From Patescibacteria group bacterium (GTDB lineage Bacteria; Patescibacteriota; Minisyncoccia; UBA6257; 02-FULL-45-10c), in the NCBI GenBank assembly GCA_018896875.1, contig JAHILT010000032.1, positions 1-60,897 on the forward strand: DNA of 60,897 nucleotides, given 5' to 3'. Below the pieces are notes generated by a model that saw only the letters and a list, made by a program, of their open reading frames with translations, searched no databases and was not told the DNA's origin. The position numbers and the translations under genes were made by a program. Of this stretch, positions 665 to 27,837 are shown in pieces; positions within the stretch are counted from its first letter, which is position 1; the number at the start of each line of letters is the position of its first letter.

Positions 665-3511
665 ATGTACAAACTAAAAACAATACTTTTCAGCACTATC
701 ATTGTCTTAACGCTAATGATAAGTACCACATTCGCCTGGACCAACCCATCCGCCAATCCTCCCGACGGCTCGGGGACTTTGACGGCTTCTACTACGAACA
801 TTGGCATCGGGACGACGAATCCGGGGTATAAATTAGATGTTAATGGAACATTGCGTGTATCAAGTTCGGCAACTTTTAGTGGGGCCTTTTCAGTTGGTGC
901 TGGTCTTTATGTAGGAACTGGCGGAGGGGGAATGTATATAAATACAATAGGTGCAAGAAGTGCTGGGGATGGTTTTACCATTCAAGGTAGAAGAACAGCA
1001 GCGAGTGGATTGCCTAGTGTCCGTATTATATCCGAGACTGGACTTAATAATGATGATATAGCAGTTCAAATTGGTGGTAATGCACCAGTTATGAATATAA
1101 TGCAAGGCGGCAACGTCGGCATCGCTTCCACTACTCCCTGGGGACTTCTATCTGTCAATCCAAACGGGATTACTGGCCCGGCGTTTGTCGTTGGTTCTTC
1201 CACGGTTACCAATTTGATTGTTACTAATGGCGGCAACGTCGGCATCGGGACGACGGCTCCAGCAGAAAAATTAACCTTGCCTTATGGGAATAAAATTGGG
1301 TTCACATTTAGTGATGCTAATTTAAATGTTTATAATAGTATTGGAAAACCAGCTACCGGAAATAGTCCTCTTACTTTTTCTGCTACTTATGCTCCTCCTA
1401 CTGCTGATGATATTTTTGATTTTAGAAATAATCTTGGATCTGTTATGGTAATAGAACAAAGTGGAGAAGTCGGCATCGGGACGACGGATCCAGATGGGAA
1501 ATTAACAGTTAATACCGGCGAAATCAGGATTAAAAATGCTGATACGTATGGATTATCATTTGATTACAGTTCCTGGACGCAGAATGCTCGCATCTGGTTA
1601 TCTGACACATTCCAATTGAATCTCGCTGGGCACACAGGAATTCAGATGTTTAGTAATCATTTAAACGGCGTCTGGACTCCTCGGTTTGCGATTGACATGA
1701 GCGGCAATGTCAGCTTGGGAAACGGCAAACTGTATGTGAAGGAATCTACTGCCAACGTCGGCATCGCTTCCACTACTCCTTGGGGACTTCTATCCGTCAA
1801 TCCAAACGGAATTACCGGCCCGGCGTTTGTCGTTGGTTCTTCCACGGTTACCAATTTGATTGTTACTAATGGCGGAAACGTCGGCATCGGGACGTCGGCT
1901 CCGAATAAATTATTACACTTAAAAACCGCCAGCGGTAACGCGGAATTAGATATTCAAAGTGTTGATAGTCCATATTGGGGTATTTATCAAGATGACACTA
2001 CTGATGATTTGCGTTTTTGGAATGTTGATAACAGAATGACTATCACTGATGCCGGCAATGTTGGGATTGGGACTGTAAGTCCGACCTCTCTCCTTGAGAT
2101 AGTTGGAGATGCATCATTAGATAGTTTTTCAACTAATACTAATGCTTTGCCAGCTATTCGAGATTCACACTCTTCAATCGTTGCTAATGGTTATATTTAT
2201 GTAATTGGAGGATACGATGACAGCAGTGCTGTGTCTACCGTTTACTACGCCGAACTTAACAGCGATGGCTCAACTGGAACTTGGTCTACTAATGCCAATG
2301 CTTTGCCAGTCGCTCTATATGGTCACTCCTCAGTCGTTGCTAATGGTTATGTTTATGTAATTGGAGGAGCTAATGTATCCACTGTCTATTACGCCAAGCT
2401 TAATAGCGATGGCTCAACTGGAACTTGGTCTACTAATACTAATGCTTTGCCTACTACTCGATATGTTCATTCTTCAGTCGTTGCTAATGGTTATGTTTAT
2501 GTAATCGGAGGTTATGATGGTACTAATTATCAATCCACTGTTTATTATGCTGAACTTAACAGCGACGGCTCAACTGGAACTTGGTCTACTAATGCCAATG
2601 CTTTACCAGCTATTGGAGGTAATCGTCCCGCAACAGTTTCTAATGGTTATGTTTATGTAACTGGAGGATGGGACAAAACTAATGTTTTATCCACCGTCTA
2701 TTACGCCAAGCTTAATAGCGATGGCTCAACTGGAACTTGGTCTACTAATGCCAATGCTTTGCCAGCTGCTCGAAGTAATCACTCCTCAGTTGTTGCTAAT
2801 GGTTATGTCTATATAATTGGAGGGGGTGATACTGGCGGTTATAGATCCACTGTTTATTATGCTGAACTTAACAGCGACGGCTCAACTGGAACTTGGTCTA
2901 CTAATGCCAATGCTTTGCCGGGAATTAGAGTTAGACATTCTTCAGTTGTTGCTAATGGTTATGTTTATGTAATTGGAGGAAATGATAGTTTTAATAATCA
3001 ATCAACTGTTTATTATGCTTCCACCGCCCGAATAAAATTCAAGGGAAATCTTGATTTGCTTGGGTTAACATCGTCTTCTCTTACCGATTCTCCAGGTGAC
3101 ACAGGTTCTTCTATTTTCGCTGGAAATATTTTTAGTAATAATACCTTAGAAGTTGGTGGTAATGCTCAATTTTGGAATGGAGTGGGGATTAATGGCAATT
3201 TAACTGTTAATGATGGACTCTCTGTTTCTGGAACCGTAGATATGTTTGGTGCGTGGGAAAGTAAATCAGCTGACACTTCTTATTTAGCAGAGTCTGATGG
3301 ATTTGTAGTTATACACACACTAGATAGTACTTCTAGCATTCTAACTGACAGCGCAAATCCTCCAACTATTGTAAGGGCATGGGTTGCTGGCGTAGTAACA
3401 GGCAATAGACGAGGTTCTGGAACGGTTCCTGTAAGAAAAGGGGATTATTGGAAGGTTGTAACTAATACAGGAACAGCGGCTACGATTTTTTGGATACCGT
3501 TAGGGCAATAA
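665..3511 (+). CDS. large secreted repeat protein: signal peptide, GNVGIGT(T/S)xP tail-fibre-like motifs, six Kelch-type repeats, C-terminal globular domain
   Basis: 948-aa ORF with hydrophobic N-terminus (LTLMISTTFA/WTNP). GNVGIG/GEVGIG motif occurs at least 5 times. Six copies of STVYYA(E/K)LNSDGSTGTWSTNANALP...HSSVVANGYVYVIGG. Confidence 0.88.
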   Translation: MYKLKTILFSTIIVLTLMISTTFAWTNPSANPPDGSGTLTASTTNIGIGTTNPGYKLDVNGTLRVSSSATFSGAFSVGAGLYVGTGGGGMYINTIGARSAGDGFTIQGRRTAASGLPSVRIISETGLNNDDIAVQIGGNAPVMNIMQGGNVGIASTTPWGLLSVNPNGITGPAFVVGSSTVTNLIVTNGGNVGIGTTAPAEKLTLPYGNKIGFTFSDANLNVYNSIGKPATGNSPLTFSATYAPPTADDIFDFRNNLGSVMVIEQSGEVGIGTTDPDGKLTVNTGEIRIKNADTYGLSFDYSSWTQNARIWLSDTFQLNLAGHTGIQMFSNHLNGVWTPRFAIDMSGNVSLGNGKLYVKESTANVGIASTTPWGLLSVNPNGITGPAFVVGSSTVTNLIVTNGGNVGIGTSAPNKLLHLKTASGNAELDIQSVDSPYWGIYQDDTTDDLRFWNVDNRMTITDAGNVGIGTVSPTSLLEIVGDASLDSFSTNTNALPAIRDSHSSIVANGYIYVIGGYDDSSAVSTVYYAELNSDGSTGTWSTNANALPVALYGHSSVVANGYVYVIGGANVSTVYYAKLNSDGSTGTWSTNTNALPTTRYVHSSVVANGYVYVIGGYDGTNYQSTVYYAELNSDGSTGTWSTNANALPAIGGNRPATVSNGYVYVTGGWDKTNVLSTVYYAKLNSDGSTGTWSTNANALPAARSNHSSVVANGYVYIIGGGDTGGYRSTVYYAELNSDGSTGTWSTNANALPGIRVRHSSVVANGYVYVIGGNDSFNNQSTVYYASTARIKFKGNLDLLGLTSSSLTDSPGDTGSSIFAGNIFSNNTLEVGGNAQFWNGVGINGNLTVNDGLSVSGTVDMFGAWESKSADTSYLAESDGFVVIHTLDSTSSILTDSANPPTIVRAWVAGVVTGNRRGSGTVPVRKGDYWKVVTNTGTAATIFWIPLGQ
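1109..1260 (+). repeat. intragenic duplication, copy 1 (about 150 bp)
   Basis: Near-identical to 1751-1902 (7 substitutions counted by eye). Encodes GNVGIASTTPWGLLSVNPNGITGPAFVVGSSTVTNLIVTNGGNVGIGT. Confidence 0.9.
1751..1902 (+). repeat. intragenic duplication, copy 2
   Basis: Offset of 642 bp (214 codons, in frame) from copy 1. Confidence 0.9.
2123..3020 (+). repeat. six tandem Kelch-type repeats of about 50 aa (predicted six-bladed beta-propeller)
   Basis: ANGY(V/I)Y(V/I)(I/T)GG occurs 6 times with conserved STVYYA.LNSDGSTGTWS linkers. Units are highly similar at the DNA level. Confidence 0.8.
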
Positions 3512-3538
3512 TATTTGGAAGTCCGACTTCCAAATATT
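3510..3538. repeat. perfect palindrome AATATTTGGAAGTC-C-GACTTCCAAATATT at the gene end
   Basis: 13-bp arms overlapping the TAA stop. Shares the core GGAAGTC(C/G)GACTTCC with 3925-3945. No U-tract follows. Confidence 0.8.
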
Positions 3539-3620
3539 AAAAATCAATTGATTTTGATTTTCATTTTTGAGTGTGGTATATTTAACAAAGTAAATAATAA
3601 TTAATTTTTTATTACTTGGT

Positions 3621-3917
3621 ATGAAAAAGAAAATAAATAAAAAACAATCATCAATTCCTGAACGGCAGTTTGGAGTTATTTTAGAAAGTATGGATTCTAA
3701 ACTTAGTTCAGTTTTGGAAAGTCATCAAGCATTGGATGTTAAGATTGATAAAAACCATGAAGAATTTAGAGAATTTAGAAGTGAAGTTAATTATAAATTT
3801 GATGCGGTTTTTGATGAATTACATATCATTCGCAATGAGCTCAAAGAAAAAGTTGGACGGGATGAATTTATTCTTTTAGAAAAAAGAGTAATGGCTTTAG
3901 AAAAATCAAGAAAATAA
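3621..3917 (+). CDS. hypothetical small charged, coiled-coil-like protein
   Basis: 98-aa ORF rich in heptad-like K/E/L segments. No recognisable family. Bracketed by the two GGAAGTCSGACTTCC palindromes. Confidence 0.5.
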   Translation: MKKKINKKQSSIPERQFGVILESMDSKLSSVLESHQALDVKIDKNHEEFREFRSEVNYKFDAVFDELHIIRNELKEKVGRDEFILLEKRVMALEKSRK

Positions 3918-23984: not shown

Positions 23985-24228
23985 AGACGTTTCTTTATTG
24001 AAACGATAAATTAAGGGCGTATGGTGGATGCCTTGGCATCAAAAGGCGATGAAGGACGTGGTGTAGCTGCGATAAGCTTCGGGGAGGTGTTTAGCAACCT
24101 TTGATCCGGAGATTTCCGAATGGGGTAACCTAATTGCGTAAACCGCAATTGCTTTATTTCGTAAGAAATAGAGAGCGTATCCGCTGAAGTGAAACATCTC
24201 AGTAAGCGGGAGAATAAAAAACAATAGT

Positions 24229-24260
<32 letters not shown>

Positions 24261-24691
24261 GAGCCCAAACTTGAAGAGAAATTATTAAAATCCGAAATTT
24301 GTGATTCGAAATTAAATTTGATGATCTGTTCGGTCGTTTTAGTAGTCAATTTTTGAGGGTTGTAAGATAGAAACTTTTTCAAAATCATCGAATAGCGAAC
24401 AAAGTTTAGTTAGCTATTCGTTGATTTCGAGAGGAGAGTTACAAAATTAATTTTTAATTGAATCTGCTGGAAAGCGGAACCATAGAGAGTGATAGTCTCG
24501 TAAATAAAAAAAATTAATCTTTCTGTTTCTACCGGTTTATTAAATATCTTCGGATATTTAATAAAAAATCCGGCGAACCAGCAAGGAGAGCTAAATTAGT
24601 TTTTCTTGCTGGTTCTATCTTGAGTACTGCGAGGCCAATAAACCTTGCAGGAAGCAACGAGTACTAATCTCGTGAGGCTAAATACTTTTGA

Positions 24692-24732
<41 letters not shown>

Positions 24733-25171
24733 CAGCCCGGCGAGGGCGTTGAAATAGTACCTGAAACCATATGCTTACAAGGACTCGAAGCCTAAAATGT
24801 ATTCCGCACACAATTAATAACAAGCGGTTGTTTTTTGTGTGCGGAATATATGTGGGTAACGTGGTGCCTATTGAAGAATGAGCCAACGACTTTATGTAAA
24901 TGGCAGGCTAACCTGGTAGAAACGGGGGAGCCATAGGGAAACCGAGTGTTAATAGCGCGAACGTCTCGCAAGAGACAATGTCTTTTATGTAAGACCCGAA
25001 GCCAAGCGAGCTTGCCCTGGACAGGATGAGCCCTGACTAAACATCAGGAGGAGGTCCGAACTAGTAGATCGTGCAACATCTTTAGATGATCTGGGGTAAG
25101 AAGTGAAAAGCTAATCGAGCTTGGTGATAGCTGGTTCTCTCCGAAACAGTTTTTGGACTGGCGGCAACTCA

Positions 25172-25438
25172 GTGACCTTTGAATAAATCCAACGATTATT
25201 GGCCAGAAAGATTTTTTATTCTGGCTAGACGCAAGAAGTGATGTGTGTCTTTAGACACATGAGCGACGAGCAACAACGCTAGAATAAAAAAGATTCTGGC
25301 TCGCAGAGAAACTCAAAATTAAACGAGTTCTGCGTTGCTTCTCCTCAGCGTGGTATAAACCACAGCTTCGTCGTCGCGTCTTAAACTCATTTTAATTTAT
25401 GAGTTTCCAATATATCGCTGTATTTATTCAGAGGTCAC
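25172..25438 (+). repeat. roughly 250-nt helix-tip insertion in 23S domain II carrying the structured palindromic module
   Basis: Base stem GTGACCTTTGAATAAAT...ATTTATTCAGAGGTCAC just 5' of the conserved GGGGGTAGAGCACTG. Contains antisense half 25228-25279 and sense core 25325-25388. Confidence 0.8.
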
Positions 25439-27235
25439 GTAAGTTTTTTGGGGGTAGAGCACTGGATGGTTGACACAGGACGAAAGTCCGGTCGACCAAT
25501 CAAACTCCGAATACCAAAAAATATAGTTGCTAGTTAGACTGCGGGGGCAAAGCTCCGTGGTCGCAAGGGAAAAAGCCCAGATCGCCATCTAAGGTCCCCA
25601 AATTCTTGCTAAGTGTGAAAGGTAGTAATTAGCCATAGACAGATAGTAGGTTGGCTTAGAGGTAGCCATCCTTTAAAGAGTGTGTAACAACTCACTATTC
25701 GAATCCTTTTTTATTAAAGGATTGGTTAGTTGCGCCCAAAATTTACCGGGGCTAAGCAAGATACCGAAGATGCGAATTATCTTATTTTTAATAAGGTAGT
25801 GGTAGGAGAGCATTTCTATCTGCTGTGAAGCCGTACCCGTGAGGGGCGGTGGAGCGATGGGAAGAGAGAATGTTGGCATGAGTAATCCCAAATTGGGTGA
25901 GAAACCCAATCCCCGTAAATCCTAGGTTTCCGTGGCAATGGCAATCAACCACGGGTTAGGCGATCCTAAGGTCATGGCGAAAGCCGCAGCTGAAGGGAAA
26001 GATAGTTAATATTCTATCCCCTCTGGATAGTGCGATGGAGGGACGGAGGAAATAAGGTTGTGCGCCTTAATGGTTTGGCGTCACTGGTTTTAAGAAACGG
26101 CTTCTAGGCAAATCCGGAAGTCTGCTTTTAATAGCAAGTTTCGTAAATTGGAGTAAGGTTAAGTATTTACTTGACTAATACAATCGAATAGCCTCCCAAG
26201 AAAAACTTCTAAGGGTAATTTATTACTAAGCTATTTAGAGATCGTACCGTAAACCGACACAGGTGGATGAGGCGAGCAGCCTCAGGGGAACGAGTGAGTC
26301 TTCGTTAAGGAACTCGGCAAAAAAGCGGCCGTAAGTTCGCAATAAGGCCTGCCCTTCGTAAGAAGGGCCGCAGCTAAAGTATCTCTGGCGACTGTTTACC
26401 AAAAACACAGCTCCCTGCTAACTCGTAAGAGGATGTATAGGGGGTGACGCCTGACCGATGCGAGAAGGTTAACGGTGGGGGTGATATGCAGCAATGTGTA
26501 TTACTCACTACCCGAAGCCCTCGTCAATGTCGGCGGTAACTATAACCGTCCAAAGGTAGCGCAATTCCTTTTCAGGTAAGTTCTGAAGCGCATGAAAGGC
26601 GTAACGATCGGAGAACTGTCTCAACGAAGAGCTCGATGAAAATGCGATTCCCGTGAAGACGCGGGATACCTGCAGCAAGACGAAAAGACCCTAGGAGCTT
26701 TACTGTGTGTTGGTATTGATTTTAAGTATTTGATGCGTAGCGTATTGGGTAGGATTTGAAGTTTCACTTTCGGGTGGAATGGATCCGCCGATGAAACACC
26801 CATCTTCAAGTTTTTAAAGTCTAACCGATTAGGAATCTGGGATTTTCCCGGTAAGCCTAATTGAGACAGTGCCTGCTGGACAGTTTAAATGGGGCATTTT
26901 CCTCCTAAAGAGTAATGGAGGAGTTTATTAAGGTTGGCTTAGCCCGGATGGAAATCGGGCTGGACGCGTAAAGGCAAAAGCCAGCTTGACTGCAAGACTT
27001 ACAAGTCGCGCAGGCGCGAAAGCGGAACTTAGCGACCCGACAGCACTTTATAGAAAGGCTGGAGACAACGGATAAAAGTTACCCTAGGGACAACAGGCTA
27101 GTATCGTCCGAGAGTCCTTATCGACGACGATGCTCGGCACCTCGATGTCGGCTCGCCCTAGCGCGGGGCTGAAGAAGGTCCCAAGCGTATGGCTGTTCGC
27201 CATTTAAAAGGGCACGCGAGCTGGGTTCAAACCGT

Positions 27236-27491
27236 TGATGCGCTAATCATATAATATGATTAGATTGGCGTATGAACGGTTTGAGTCCGAGGAGCAAGAC
27301 ATCATTCACGGCGCTCATAAGAAGTAATTCTTATGAACCAAGTTAACTAATATCGGTGAAACCCTATAAGTGTGGGGTAATACCGAGGGAATTCTATTTT
27401 TATAGAAGCCCGTAGAGACTATACGTTAACCTCCTTATTAAAATAAGGATGAAGATATAGTCCAATGCACGTAGTAATACGTGGAAACATG
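27236..27491 (+). ncRNA. ORF-less group I intron candidate (256 nt) in the 23S
   Basis: Interrupts GGGTTCAAACCGT|CGTGAGACAGGTTGG. Follows a U and ends in G. Internal ACGGTTTG (27276-27283) complements the exon CAAACCGT (27228-27235). GNRA-capped hairpin at 27316-27335. Confidence 0.65.
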
Positions 27492-27837
27492 CGTGAGACA
27501 GGTTGGTCTCTACCTGCTGTAGGCGTTAGTCTGAAAAAGACTTATAAACACTTGAAGGAAGTCGATCCTAGTACGAGAGGACCGGATTGAACGAGCCTCT
27601 GGTCTACCAGCTTTGTTACCAAATGAAGCGCTGGGTAGCTATTGCTCGGAAGGGATAAGAGCTGAAAGCATCTAAGCACGAAGCCCCTCCAAAGACTATG
27701 TGTTAGGTCCGTAGAAGACTACTACGTTGATAGGCCACAAATGTACGCACAGTAATGTGTTTAGTTGAGTGGTACTAATAGACCGATTTTCTTTTATACA
27801 AGGTTTCATACCATTGAAGTTTTGTATAAGAGATTTT

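Follow-up and report, generated by a model that had tools for sequence, protein, structure and literature searches.

The 23S rRNA gene carried by the window, by which we mean the whole 60,897-nt stretch of Patescibacteria DNA analysed here, is interrupted by 256 nt, which raises the question of what kind of element this insert is, which of its segments would guide its removal and whether it is still removed from the rRNA. Our answer, to which we assign a probability of about 0.88, is that it is a group I intron, compact and devoid of an ORF, located after U2593 of the sole 23S gene of an ultra-small CPR bacterium from groundwater, that it belongs to an L2593 family of the CPR bacteria, and that it probably uses the segment at 27306-27315 as its guide.

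The interrupted 23S sequence (...GCTGGGTTCAAACCGT, with ...GGGTTCAAACCGT adjoining the insert) ends at 27235, the insert occupies 27236-27491 on the plus strand, and the rRNA resumes with CGTGAGACAGGTTGG from 27492. The insert begins with TGATGCG and ends with AACATG; it is preceded by a U and its final base is G, so that the extent and terminal nucleotides given in an earlier note on this DNA are exact. A BLAST search of the 5' flank against the annotated E. coli 23S stops at 27235, which corresponds to 23S position 2593 (position 3388 of a reference locus in which the 23S gene is annotated at 796-3699). A MAFFT alignment with the same 23S likewise places a 256-nt insertion after position 2593, i.e. 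between U2593 and C2594, and the I-CreI-type site near 2593 named in that note is hence precisely located. Since the uninterrupted sites of relatives read ...ACCGT|CGTGAGACAG, the boundaries are unambiguous: the 5' exon ends with GGGUUCAAACCGU (27223-27235, plus strand; E. coli 2581-2593), in which U27235 is the splice-site nucleotide U2593, and the 3' exon starts with CGUGAGACAG (27492-27501, plus strand; E. coli C2594 onward), as is evident from the sequence and the MAFFT alignment.

The insertion site lies inside helix 93 of the peptidyl-transferase centre, and the assembly, which comprises 789,834 bp in 89 contigs, has one 23S gene. In these CPR genomes helix 93 (27228-27235 with 27492-27506) pairs ACCGU with CAGGUUGG, in place of the AACGU with CAGUUCGG of E. 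coli, a compensated change. The 23S match as a whole spans 24001-27797, i.e. 3797 nt against a model of 2925 positions. Leaving the intron aside, it has some 600 nucleotides more than the E. coli gene, among them insertions of 165 nt after position 278 (24276-24440), 50 after 391 (24564-24613), 30 after 414 (24637-24666), 52 after 540 (24792-24843), 215 after 821 (25147-25361) and 55 after 849 (25390-25444). As these six have no Rfam match, they resemble helix extensions or IVS-like elements and not introns.

The group I assignment of the 256-nt insert is supported by a covariance-model search of the kind proposed in the earlier note: in permissive cmscan runs on the rRNA region and on the insert alone, the Rfam model Intron_gpI (RF00028) matched 27293-27484 over its full length (1-253) with 68.9 bits against a gathering threshold of 50 (E 1e-17). 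A genome-wide search with RF00028 returned the same 68.9 bits. The Rfam scan of the whole window at default gathering settings reported the 23S but not the group I intron embedded in it; given that the permissive and genome-wide searches both gave 68.9 bits, we attribute this miss to a filter effect and not to the absence of the element, and standard annotation that uses the default filters can be expected to overlook this intron. The insert is also far more stably folded than shuffled versions of itself (single-sequence minimum free energy of -103.6 kcal/mol versus -62.4 ± 4.3; z = -9.55). It departs from the intervening sequences of the RNase III type both in having a multi-helix core with a pseudoknot that matches the group I covariance model and in being situated within helix 93 instead of at a helix tip. 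Matches to mir-H11 and mir-450 at 27223-27288 were dismissed as spurious, since they merely mirror a long exon-intron hairpin. Judged by its sequence and predicted fold, the insert is a genuine group I (self-splicing-type) intron lacking an endonuclease gene, and the description of a group I intron at L2593 in a CPR bacterium is borne out by the Rfam match, by same-site homologs and by covariation.

The genome contains a second group I intron (contig C26:8434-8668, minus strand; RF00028, 69.6 bits). It is 215 nt long (1511-1725 of locus L001, minus strand) and is flanked by tRNA exons at 1726-1757 and 1471-1510, which it splits between U33 and G34. Its P1 has a canonical U.G pair (CCCU/GGGG). 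ARAGORN misses the interrupted gene, and in silico removal of the intron yields a clean tRNA-Phe(GAA) in the same program. Group I introns are known from bacterial tRNA-Leu, -fMet, -Ile and -Arg genes. A literature search, whose incomplete coverage makes it no evidence of novelty, returned nothing specific on a group I intron in tRNA-Phe of CPR bacteria.

To characterize the core of the 23S intron, we built a MAFFT alignment of 20 compact introns, each extended by 10 nt of exon at either end, predicted a consensus fold with RNAalifold, and counted pairs over a structure consisting of the RNAalifold helices along with P7 and the canonical P1. Standard pairs are found in 92.5% of the cells, as against 37-42% when the partners are slid by 1-3 columns. 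Compensatory changes are seen at 41 of the 77 pairs, distributed over the P1 extension, P2-P9 and P7; none of 500 shuffles reached any of the observed measures. Every core helix is at least 80% paired, including the P3-P9 core with its P3/P7 pseudoknot. These pair counts and compensatory changes indicate that a group I core is present and under structural selection. RNAalifold and the single-sequence fold recover the same helices, and both additionally show an unexpected pairing of UCACG with CGUGA of the 3' exon. A window-specific P2-like pairing, GAG(U)CCG/CGG(CG)CUC, finds no support among the homologs.

The elements of the intron, all on the plus strand, are arranged as follows. Its 5' end forms a hairpin (27236-27275; 27236-47 with 27264-75) with compensatory changes at 10 of 12 pairs and a tip (27248-63) that differs in length between homologs; it extends the exon-intron helix and lies within the L1 region of the canonical P1. 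Downstream of the exon-binding segments, which are treated below, comes P2 (27316-27335), an 8-bp stem with a GUAA loop in which all eight pairs show compensatory changes; this is the GNRA-capped stem that had been picked out in the earlier note from the sequence of the window. The 5' strand of P3, GUUAAC (27342-27347), pairs with the 3' strand GUUAAC (27425-27430), as supported by RNAalifold, the pair counts (100% paired, two pairs compensatory) and the sequence. Between the two strands are P4 (27353-58/27381-86) and P5 (27362-66/27373-77) with J4/5 and J5/4 (together 27353-27386; one P5 pair is CG in 10 introns and UA in the other 10), P6 (GGG/CCC) with its P6a hairpin (27387-27411; P6a 27392-97/27402-07; six pairs compensatory), and the 5' strand of P7 (27415-27423), made up of G27415, a bulged A27416 and GACUAUA. 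The last pairs with 27456-27463, pseudoknotted with P3, through five pairs invariant in 20/20 and one compensatory pair. A single nucleotide, C27431, separates the P3 3' strand (27425-30) from the P8 hairpin, which begins at 27432 (27432-27449; five pairs compensatory), and P7.1/P7.2 are absent from this interval. J8/7 (UGAAGA) and the P7 3' strand follow as UAUAGUCC (27450-27463; Rfam alignment and pair counts), and then P9 (27468-27483), a 6-bp stem with a GUAA loop and five compensatory pairs. The last intron nucleotide, 27491, is the omega-G: a final G is found in 33 of 33 homologs that had been collected without any condition on their 3' end.

Two segments of the intron can pair with the end of the 5' exon. 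The more conspicuous one includes ACGGTTTG (27276-27283), which the earlier note had proposed as the P1/IGS strand while cautioning that the splice-site U would face an A instead of forming the canonical G.U wobble. This octamer is part of a 13-nt segment, ACGGUUUGAGUCC (27276-27288), that is fully complementary to exon 27223-27235 and covaries with exon variants across the 20 introns (CG:13/UA:7 at one pair and AU:13/GC:6 at another). A perfect complement of exon positions -12 to -5 is found upstream of the guide in 85 of the 101 introns listed, as against 7% for shuffled targets. The less conspicuous one is the segment at 27306-27315, in which UCACG (27306-27310), the complement of 3' exon CGUGA (27492-27496), is paired in 99% of the cells and invariant, and GCGCU (27311-27315; GCGGU in homologs) pairs with exon ACCGU according to the pair counts in 20 homologs. 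Here the P10 part lies directly 5' of the P1 part and P2 follows at once, an order that is apparent from the near-invariant UCACG|GCGG (27306-14); once the exons are joined, their sequence CCGU|CGUGA is complementary to the near-invariant UCACGGCGG at every position, with U·G as the splice-site pair. The canonical guide ACGGCG[GC] is present in 93 of the 101 introns listed (exactly TCACGGCGG in 63), and in 76 of those 93 a GNRA hairpin then comes after it. In the group I architecture, the P10 guide stands immediately 5' of the P1 guide, which runs into P2.

We hence asked whether ACGGUUUG (27276-27283) might itself be the catalytic guide, with the long exon-intron hairpin as P1 and a U-A pair replacing U.G at the splice site. 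The helix is real and covaries with the exon, the single-sequence fold favours it thermodynamically, and G stands opposite the U in 2 of the 20 aligned homologs. However, in a wider set of 95 introns, 73 have an A facing U(-1) (A27276 in the window) and only 12 a G, and at position -3 the helix often has a C·A mismatch (ACAG in 30 introns, ACGG in 22). Moreover, a guide at 27276-27283 would leave the near-invariant complement of the ligated exons unexplained, despite its U.G in 20/20 and its location immediately 5' of P2, and would put the P10 guide downstream of the P1 guide at a distance of 20-100 nt, which is not the group I arrangement. A divergent member of the family (L017) retains CACGGCGG while the other exon helix is absent. 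A P10 formed by 3' exon CGUG with UAUG (27271-74), adjacent to the guide of the earlier note, is not conserved in homologs. We accordingly regard this alternative as improbable. The helix noticed earlier is thus a genuine, exon-complementary and covarying one, but the splice-site U faces an A in it and the catalytic P1 is most likely a different helix; the missing wobble, which does hold for that helix, is supplied by the guide at 27306-27315.

On the preferred reading, then, 27306-15 would be the catalytic guide and 27276-88 an additional exon-binding element in the L1 region, roles that we read from conservation and complementarity in the alignment. As the pairs of the P1/P10 guide are invariant, the case for it is one of conservation and complementarity and not of covariation: the P1 pairs in the 20 homologs are U·G in 20/20, G-C in 20/20, C-G in 20/20, C-G in 19/20 and A-U in 17/20. 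In the window, P1 would comprise the G27311·U27235 wobble, C27312-G27234, G27313-C27233, a C27314·C27232 mismatch and U27315-A27231. The mismatch is specific to the window, with none other among the 101 introns listed. It is no assembly error, since DNA contigs of two studies carry C27314: the intron-bearing stretch is present in groundwater metagenomes, and the intron, C27314 included, is identical in them (runs X1 and X2, zero differences). The competing segment of the window, ACGG, is fully complementary to the exon end; given this perfect competitor and the mismatch, the catalytic pairing is locally disfavoured.

Splicing would then proceed along the following lines. The guide UCACG|GCG(G)U, directly upstream of the GNRA-capped P2, is predicted to pair with both exons, forming P1 with the U2593.G27311 wobble and P10 with CGUGA. 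The P3-P9 core, with its P3/P7 pseudoknot, would bind the guanosine, and two transesterifications would join the exons and thereby re-form helix 93 of the peptidyl-transferase centre. The segment 27276-27288 would pair with exon positions -13 to -1 as a long hairpin, with A and not G opposite the splice-site U; most likely it tethers the 5' exon or else represents a non-reactive alternative conformation, which would have to trade 4-5 bp with the real guide for catalysis to begin. Both pairings appear to compete for exon positions -4 to -1. Alternatively, the distal -13 to -5 pairing could survive while P1 forms, the two stacking coaxially in a pseudoknot-like arrangement. That the base facing the U is so much more often A than G would, speculatively, suit a helix that should not be mistaken for the substrate. 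It is possible, though we hold it only tentatively, that 27276-27288 is a functional element undescribed for group I introns, a "decoy P1" in which the A opposite the U blocks recognition by the core while the helix holds on to 9-13 nt of the 5' exon, of which it passes the last 4-5 nt to the guide. A literature search, again incomplete in coverage and no evidence of novelty, returned nothing specific on a second exon-binding helix in group I introns.

We examined the spread of this intron at several phylogenetic depths. BLAST searches with the intron recovered homologs in 18 other genomes among 100 relatives, and in 34 others among 400 genomes of the same order (35/401 with the window's own), spread over many families. 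Extraction between the conserved exon flanks yielded 33 distinct inserts at the exact site, 247-745 nt long and all ending in G, along with an uninterrupted site at four loci. In two genomes of the same genus (G004 and G002) with assembled 23S, whose exons are 92-93% identical to those of the window where comparable, the empty site equals the window's ligated exons. The 3' junction ATG|CGTGAGACAGGTTGG is carried by at least 120 named GTDB genomes, and the carriers among the matches listed are almost all Patescibacteria, Parcubacteria, Paceibacterota, Nomurabacteria, Kaiserbacteria and the like. The pooled CPR/Patescibacteria set comprises at least 101 distinct L2593 introns, those listed ranging from 213 to 1034 nt with a median of 368; six of the 101 are at most 256 nt and 17 at least 650 nt long. 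The insert had been called very small: at 256 nt it is certainly compact, but only relatively so, as six listed members are no larger and the smallest has 213 nt. Introns in the rRNA of CPR bacteria are indeed known, both from the 35 of 401 same-order genomes and from the catalogue of Tsurumaki et al. as given in their article (2024, J Bacteriol, PMC11270868). Across families, the introns are 76-88% and the exons 76-91% identical, with no clear incongruence; our claim extends to a presence/absence polymorphism of the L2593 intron and not to horizontal transfer. The G002 genome (contig C45, loci L059/L060), with its empty L2593, has an insertion of about 788 nt some 82 nt downstream, corresponding to about 27573 in the window. 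This lies close to E. coli position 2657, which the same article (PMC11270868) also lists as a site of LAGLIDADG_1 introns; with L2593 empty and this insertion present in G002, intron sites appear to be swapped between close relatives.

The longer members of the family account for the homing endonuclease that the site calls to mind. In keeping with its description as ORF-less in the earlier note, the 256-nt insert is free of open frames of 50 aa or longer, and no LAGLIDADG_1 domain (PF00961) was detected in the window's own genome. In a 745-nt relative, there is a LAGLIDADG_1 frame of 152 aa (E 1.2e-9), and in a 704-nt relative one of 115 aa that covers profile positions 31-95 only; an intron-encoded, single-motif LAGLIDADG endonuclease of the I-CreI family is seen in the relatives L048 and L046 and is lacking in the window's copy. 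The 152-aa protein matches chains of I-MsoI, I-CreI and I-CvuI over about 133 residues (I-CreI chains at E ~3e-21), the enzymes of chloroplast introns at the same L2593 site. Frames of at least 147 aa occur in 13 of 70 introns from named genomes among the matches listed, the majority being ORF-less. In the members that bear it, the ORF is flanked by the P6 5' strand and J6/7, i.e. it sits in the P6 loop, while the P6 loop of the window holds only the short P6a hairpin, which suggests that this copy either lost its endonuclease or never had one. The expression "I-CreI-type site" is thus apt at the level of the family, of which the window's copy is an endonuclease-less form.

As the only 23S gene is split within helix 93 of the peptidyl-transferase centre, the intron is expected to be removed, and CPR rRNA insertions are removed from transcripts according to the original CPR metagenome work as cited by Tsurumaki et al. 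(PMC11270868). In two groundwater metatranscriptomes, the exons are covered at very high depth and the intron at zero. RNA contigs that join 27235 directly to 27492 were found in runs X11 (depth 5, shorter side 22 nt) and X13 (depth 511, shorter side 19 nt); these joining contigs are short, with 19-22 nt on the shorter side, and their junction is conserved in intron-less relatives, so that they are not assignable to this organism. We infer that the window's intron is spliced. Runs X2-X4 had been considered to hold an intron-less allele on account of a share of about 0.60, which equals the exon fraction; this reading is wrong, since the intron is present in X2 contigs without a single difference. 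One DNA contig of run X1, which probably stems from the source sample, joins 27235 to 27486 (side 25) and shares only the last 6 bases of the intron; it most likely represents the L2593 intron of another CPR organism in that groundwater with the same 3' end and not an allele.

These data bear on two further possibilities. A group I-derived insert could have ceased to be spliced, being either kept in the mature 23S, as is reported of the L1931 intron of Simkania (Everett, 1999, as cited in PMC11270868), or cut out without ligation to give a fragmented 23S in the manner of an IVS. The P1 mismatch unique to the window's copy, the lack of organism specificity of the RNA contigs, and the tolerance of CPR ribosomes for many insertions, exemplified by the additional extra nucleotides in this very 23S, are all compatible with such a fate. 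Against it speak the intact core helices and junctions, purifying and compensatory selection across the family, the location of the site within helix 93 of the only 23S gene, and the exact ligated junction in RNA contigs from two studies, none of which covers the intron despite deep exon cover; we consider it very improbable. Rather less far-fetched, though still unlikely, is an intron that is spliced without being autonomous and needs help to do so efficiently, be it from a host or trans-acting protein or from the extra helix that tethers the exon. Group I introns of small size whose P2 and P9 carry GNRA caps, such as that of Azoarcus, commonly self-splice without protein, and most members of this family are ORF-less too, both of which weigh against a dependence of this kind. 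The C.C mismatch within a P1 of just 5 bp would favour it, as would the absence of a LAGLIDADG_1 gene from anywhere in the genome, given that LAGLIDADG proteins can be maturases according to Tsurumaki et al. (PMC11270868).

Thus, a spliced group I intron remains the preferred reading, and as such the window's intron is ordinary, being one more member of an L2593 kind that is common and catalogued in CPR bacteria: that its structure is intact, and that it lies in the peptidyl-transferase centre of a CPR bacterium having one rRNA operon only, confirms the catalogued picture. It also illustrates that the correct guide may differ from the obvious complementary stretch. The dual exon-binding design, encountered in the great majority of the introns listed, is the only feature of wider interest. 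If the proposed role of the second segment is true, this extended guide, matched to its host, could serve as a folding switch that keeps rRNA helix 93 from forming too early, or it could give an ORF-less intron target specificity for reverse splicing into the 23S without a homing endonuclease. Either function, as switch or as reverse-splicing guide, would help explain the persistence and spread of endonuclease-less rRNA introns in CPR bacteria.

Among known systems, the chloroplast L2593 introns, i.e. that of Chlamydomonas reinhardtii (Cr.LSU, with I-CreI) and those encoding I-MsoI and I-CvuI, interrupt the 23S at the same site. Their endonucleases have clear homologs in the ORF-bearing relatives described above, whose ORF sits in a peripheral loop (P6), a likeness that is drawn from the site and the endonuclease; unlike them, the window's copy has no ORF. 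The cyanobacterial L2593 introns of Synechococcus C9, S. lividus C1 and Thermosynechococcus elongatus are 744-748 nt long, all with a LAGLIDADG gene, and have an extension of about 65 nt comprising P7.1/P7.2 (Haugen et al., 2007, PMC1995217). They share with the window's copy a bacterial 23S, the same site, a short P5 and a short P2, whereas the latter is devoid of both P7.1/P7.2 and the ORF. The closest counterparts are the CPR insertions surveyed by Tsurumaki et al. (PMC11270868), whose article assigns 433 of 968 CPR 23S insertions to Rfam group I introns and lists 2593 among the recurrent LAGLIDADG_1 sites, together with 1917, 1931, 1952, 2604 and 2657. The main text of that article does not describe guide sequences or an extra exon-binding hairpin; otherwise, as far as its account goes, nothing essential differs. 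The insertions at 2593 reported there are of the same lineage, site and Rfam class and carry LAGLIDADG_1 genes in their longer copies, and both they and the L2593 family delineated here show a patchy spread unrelated to host phylogeny.
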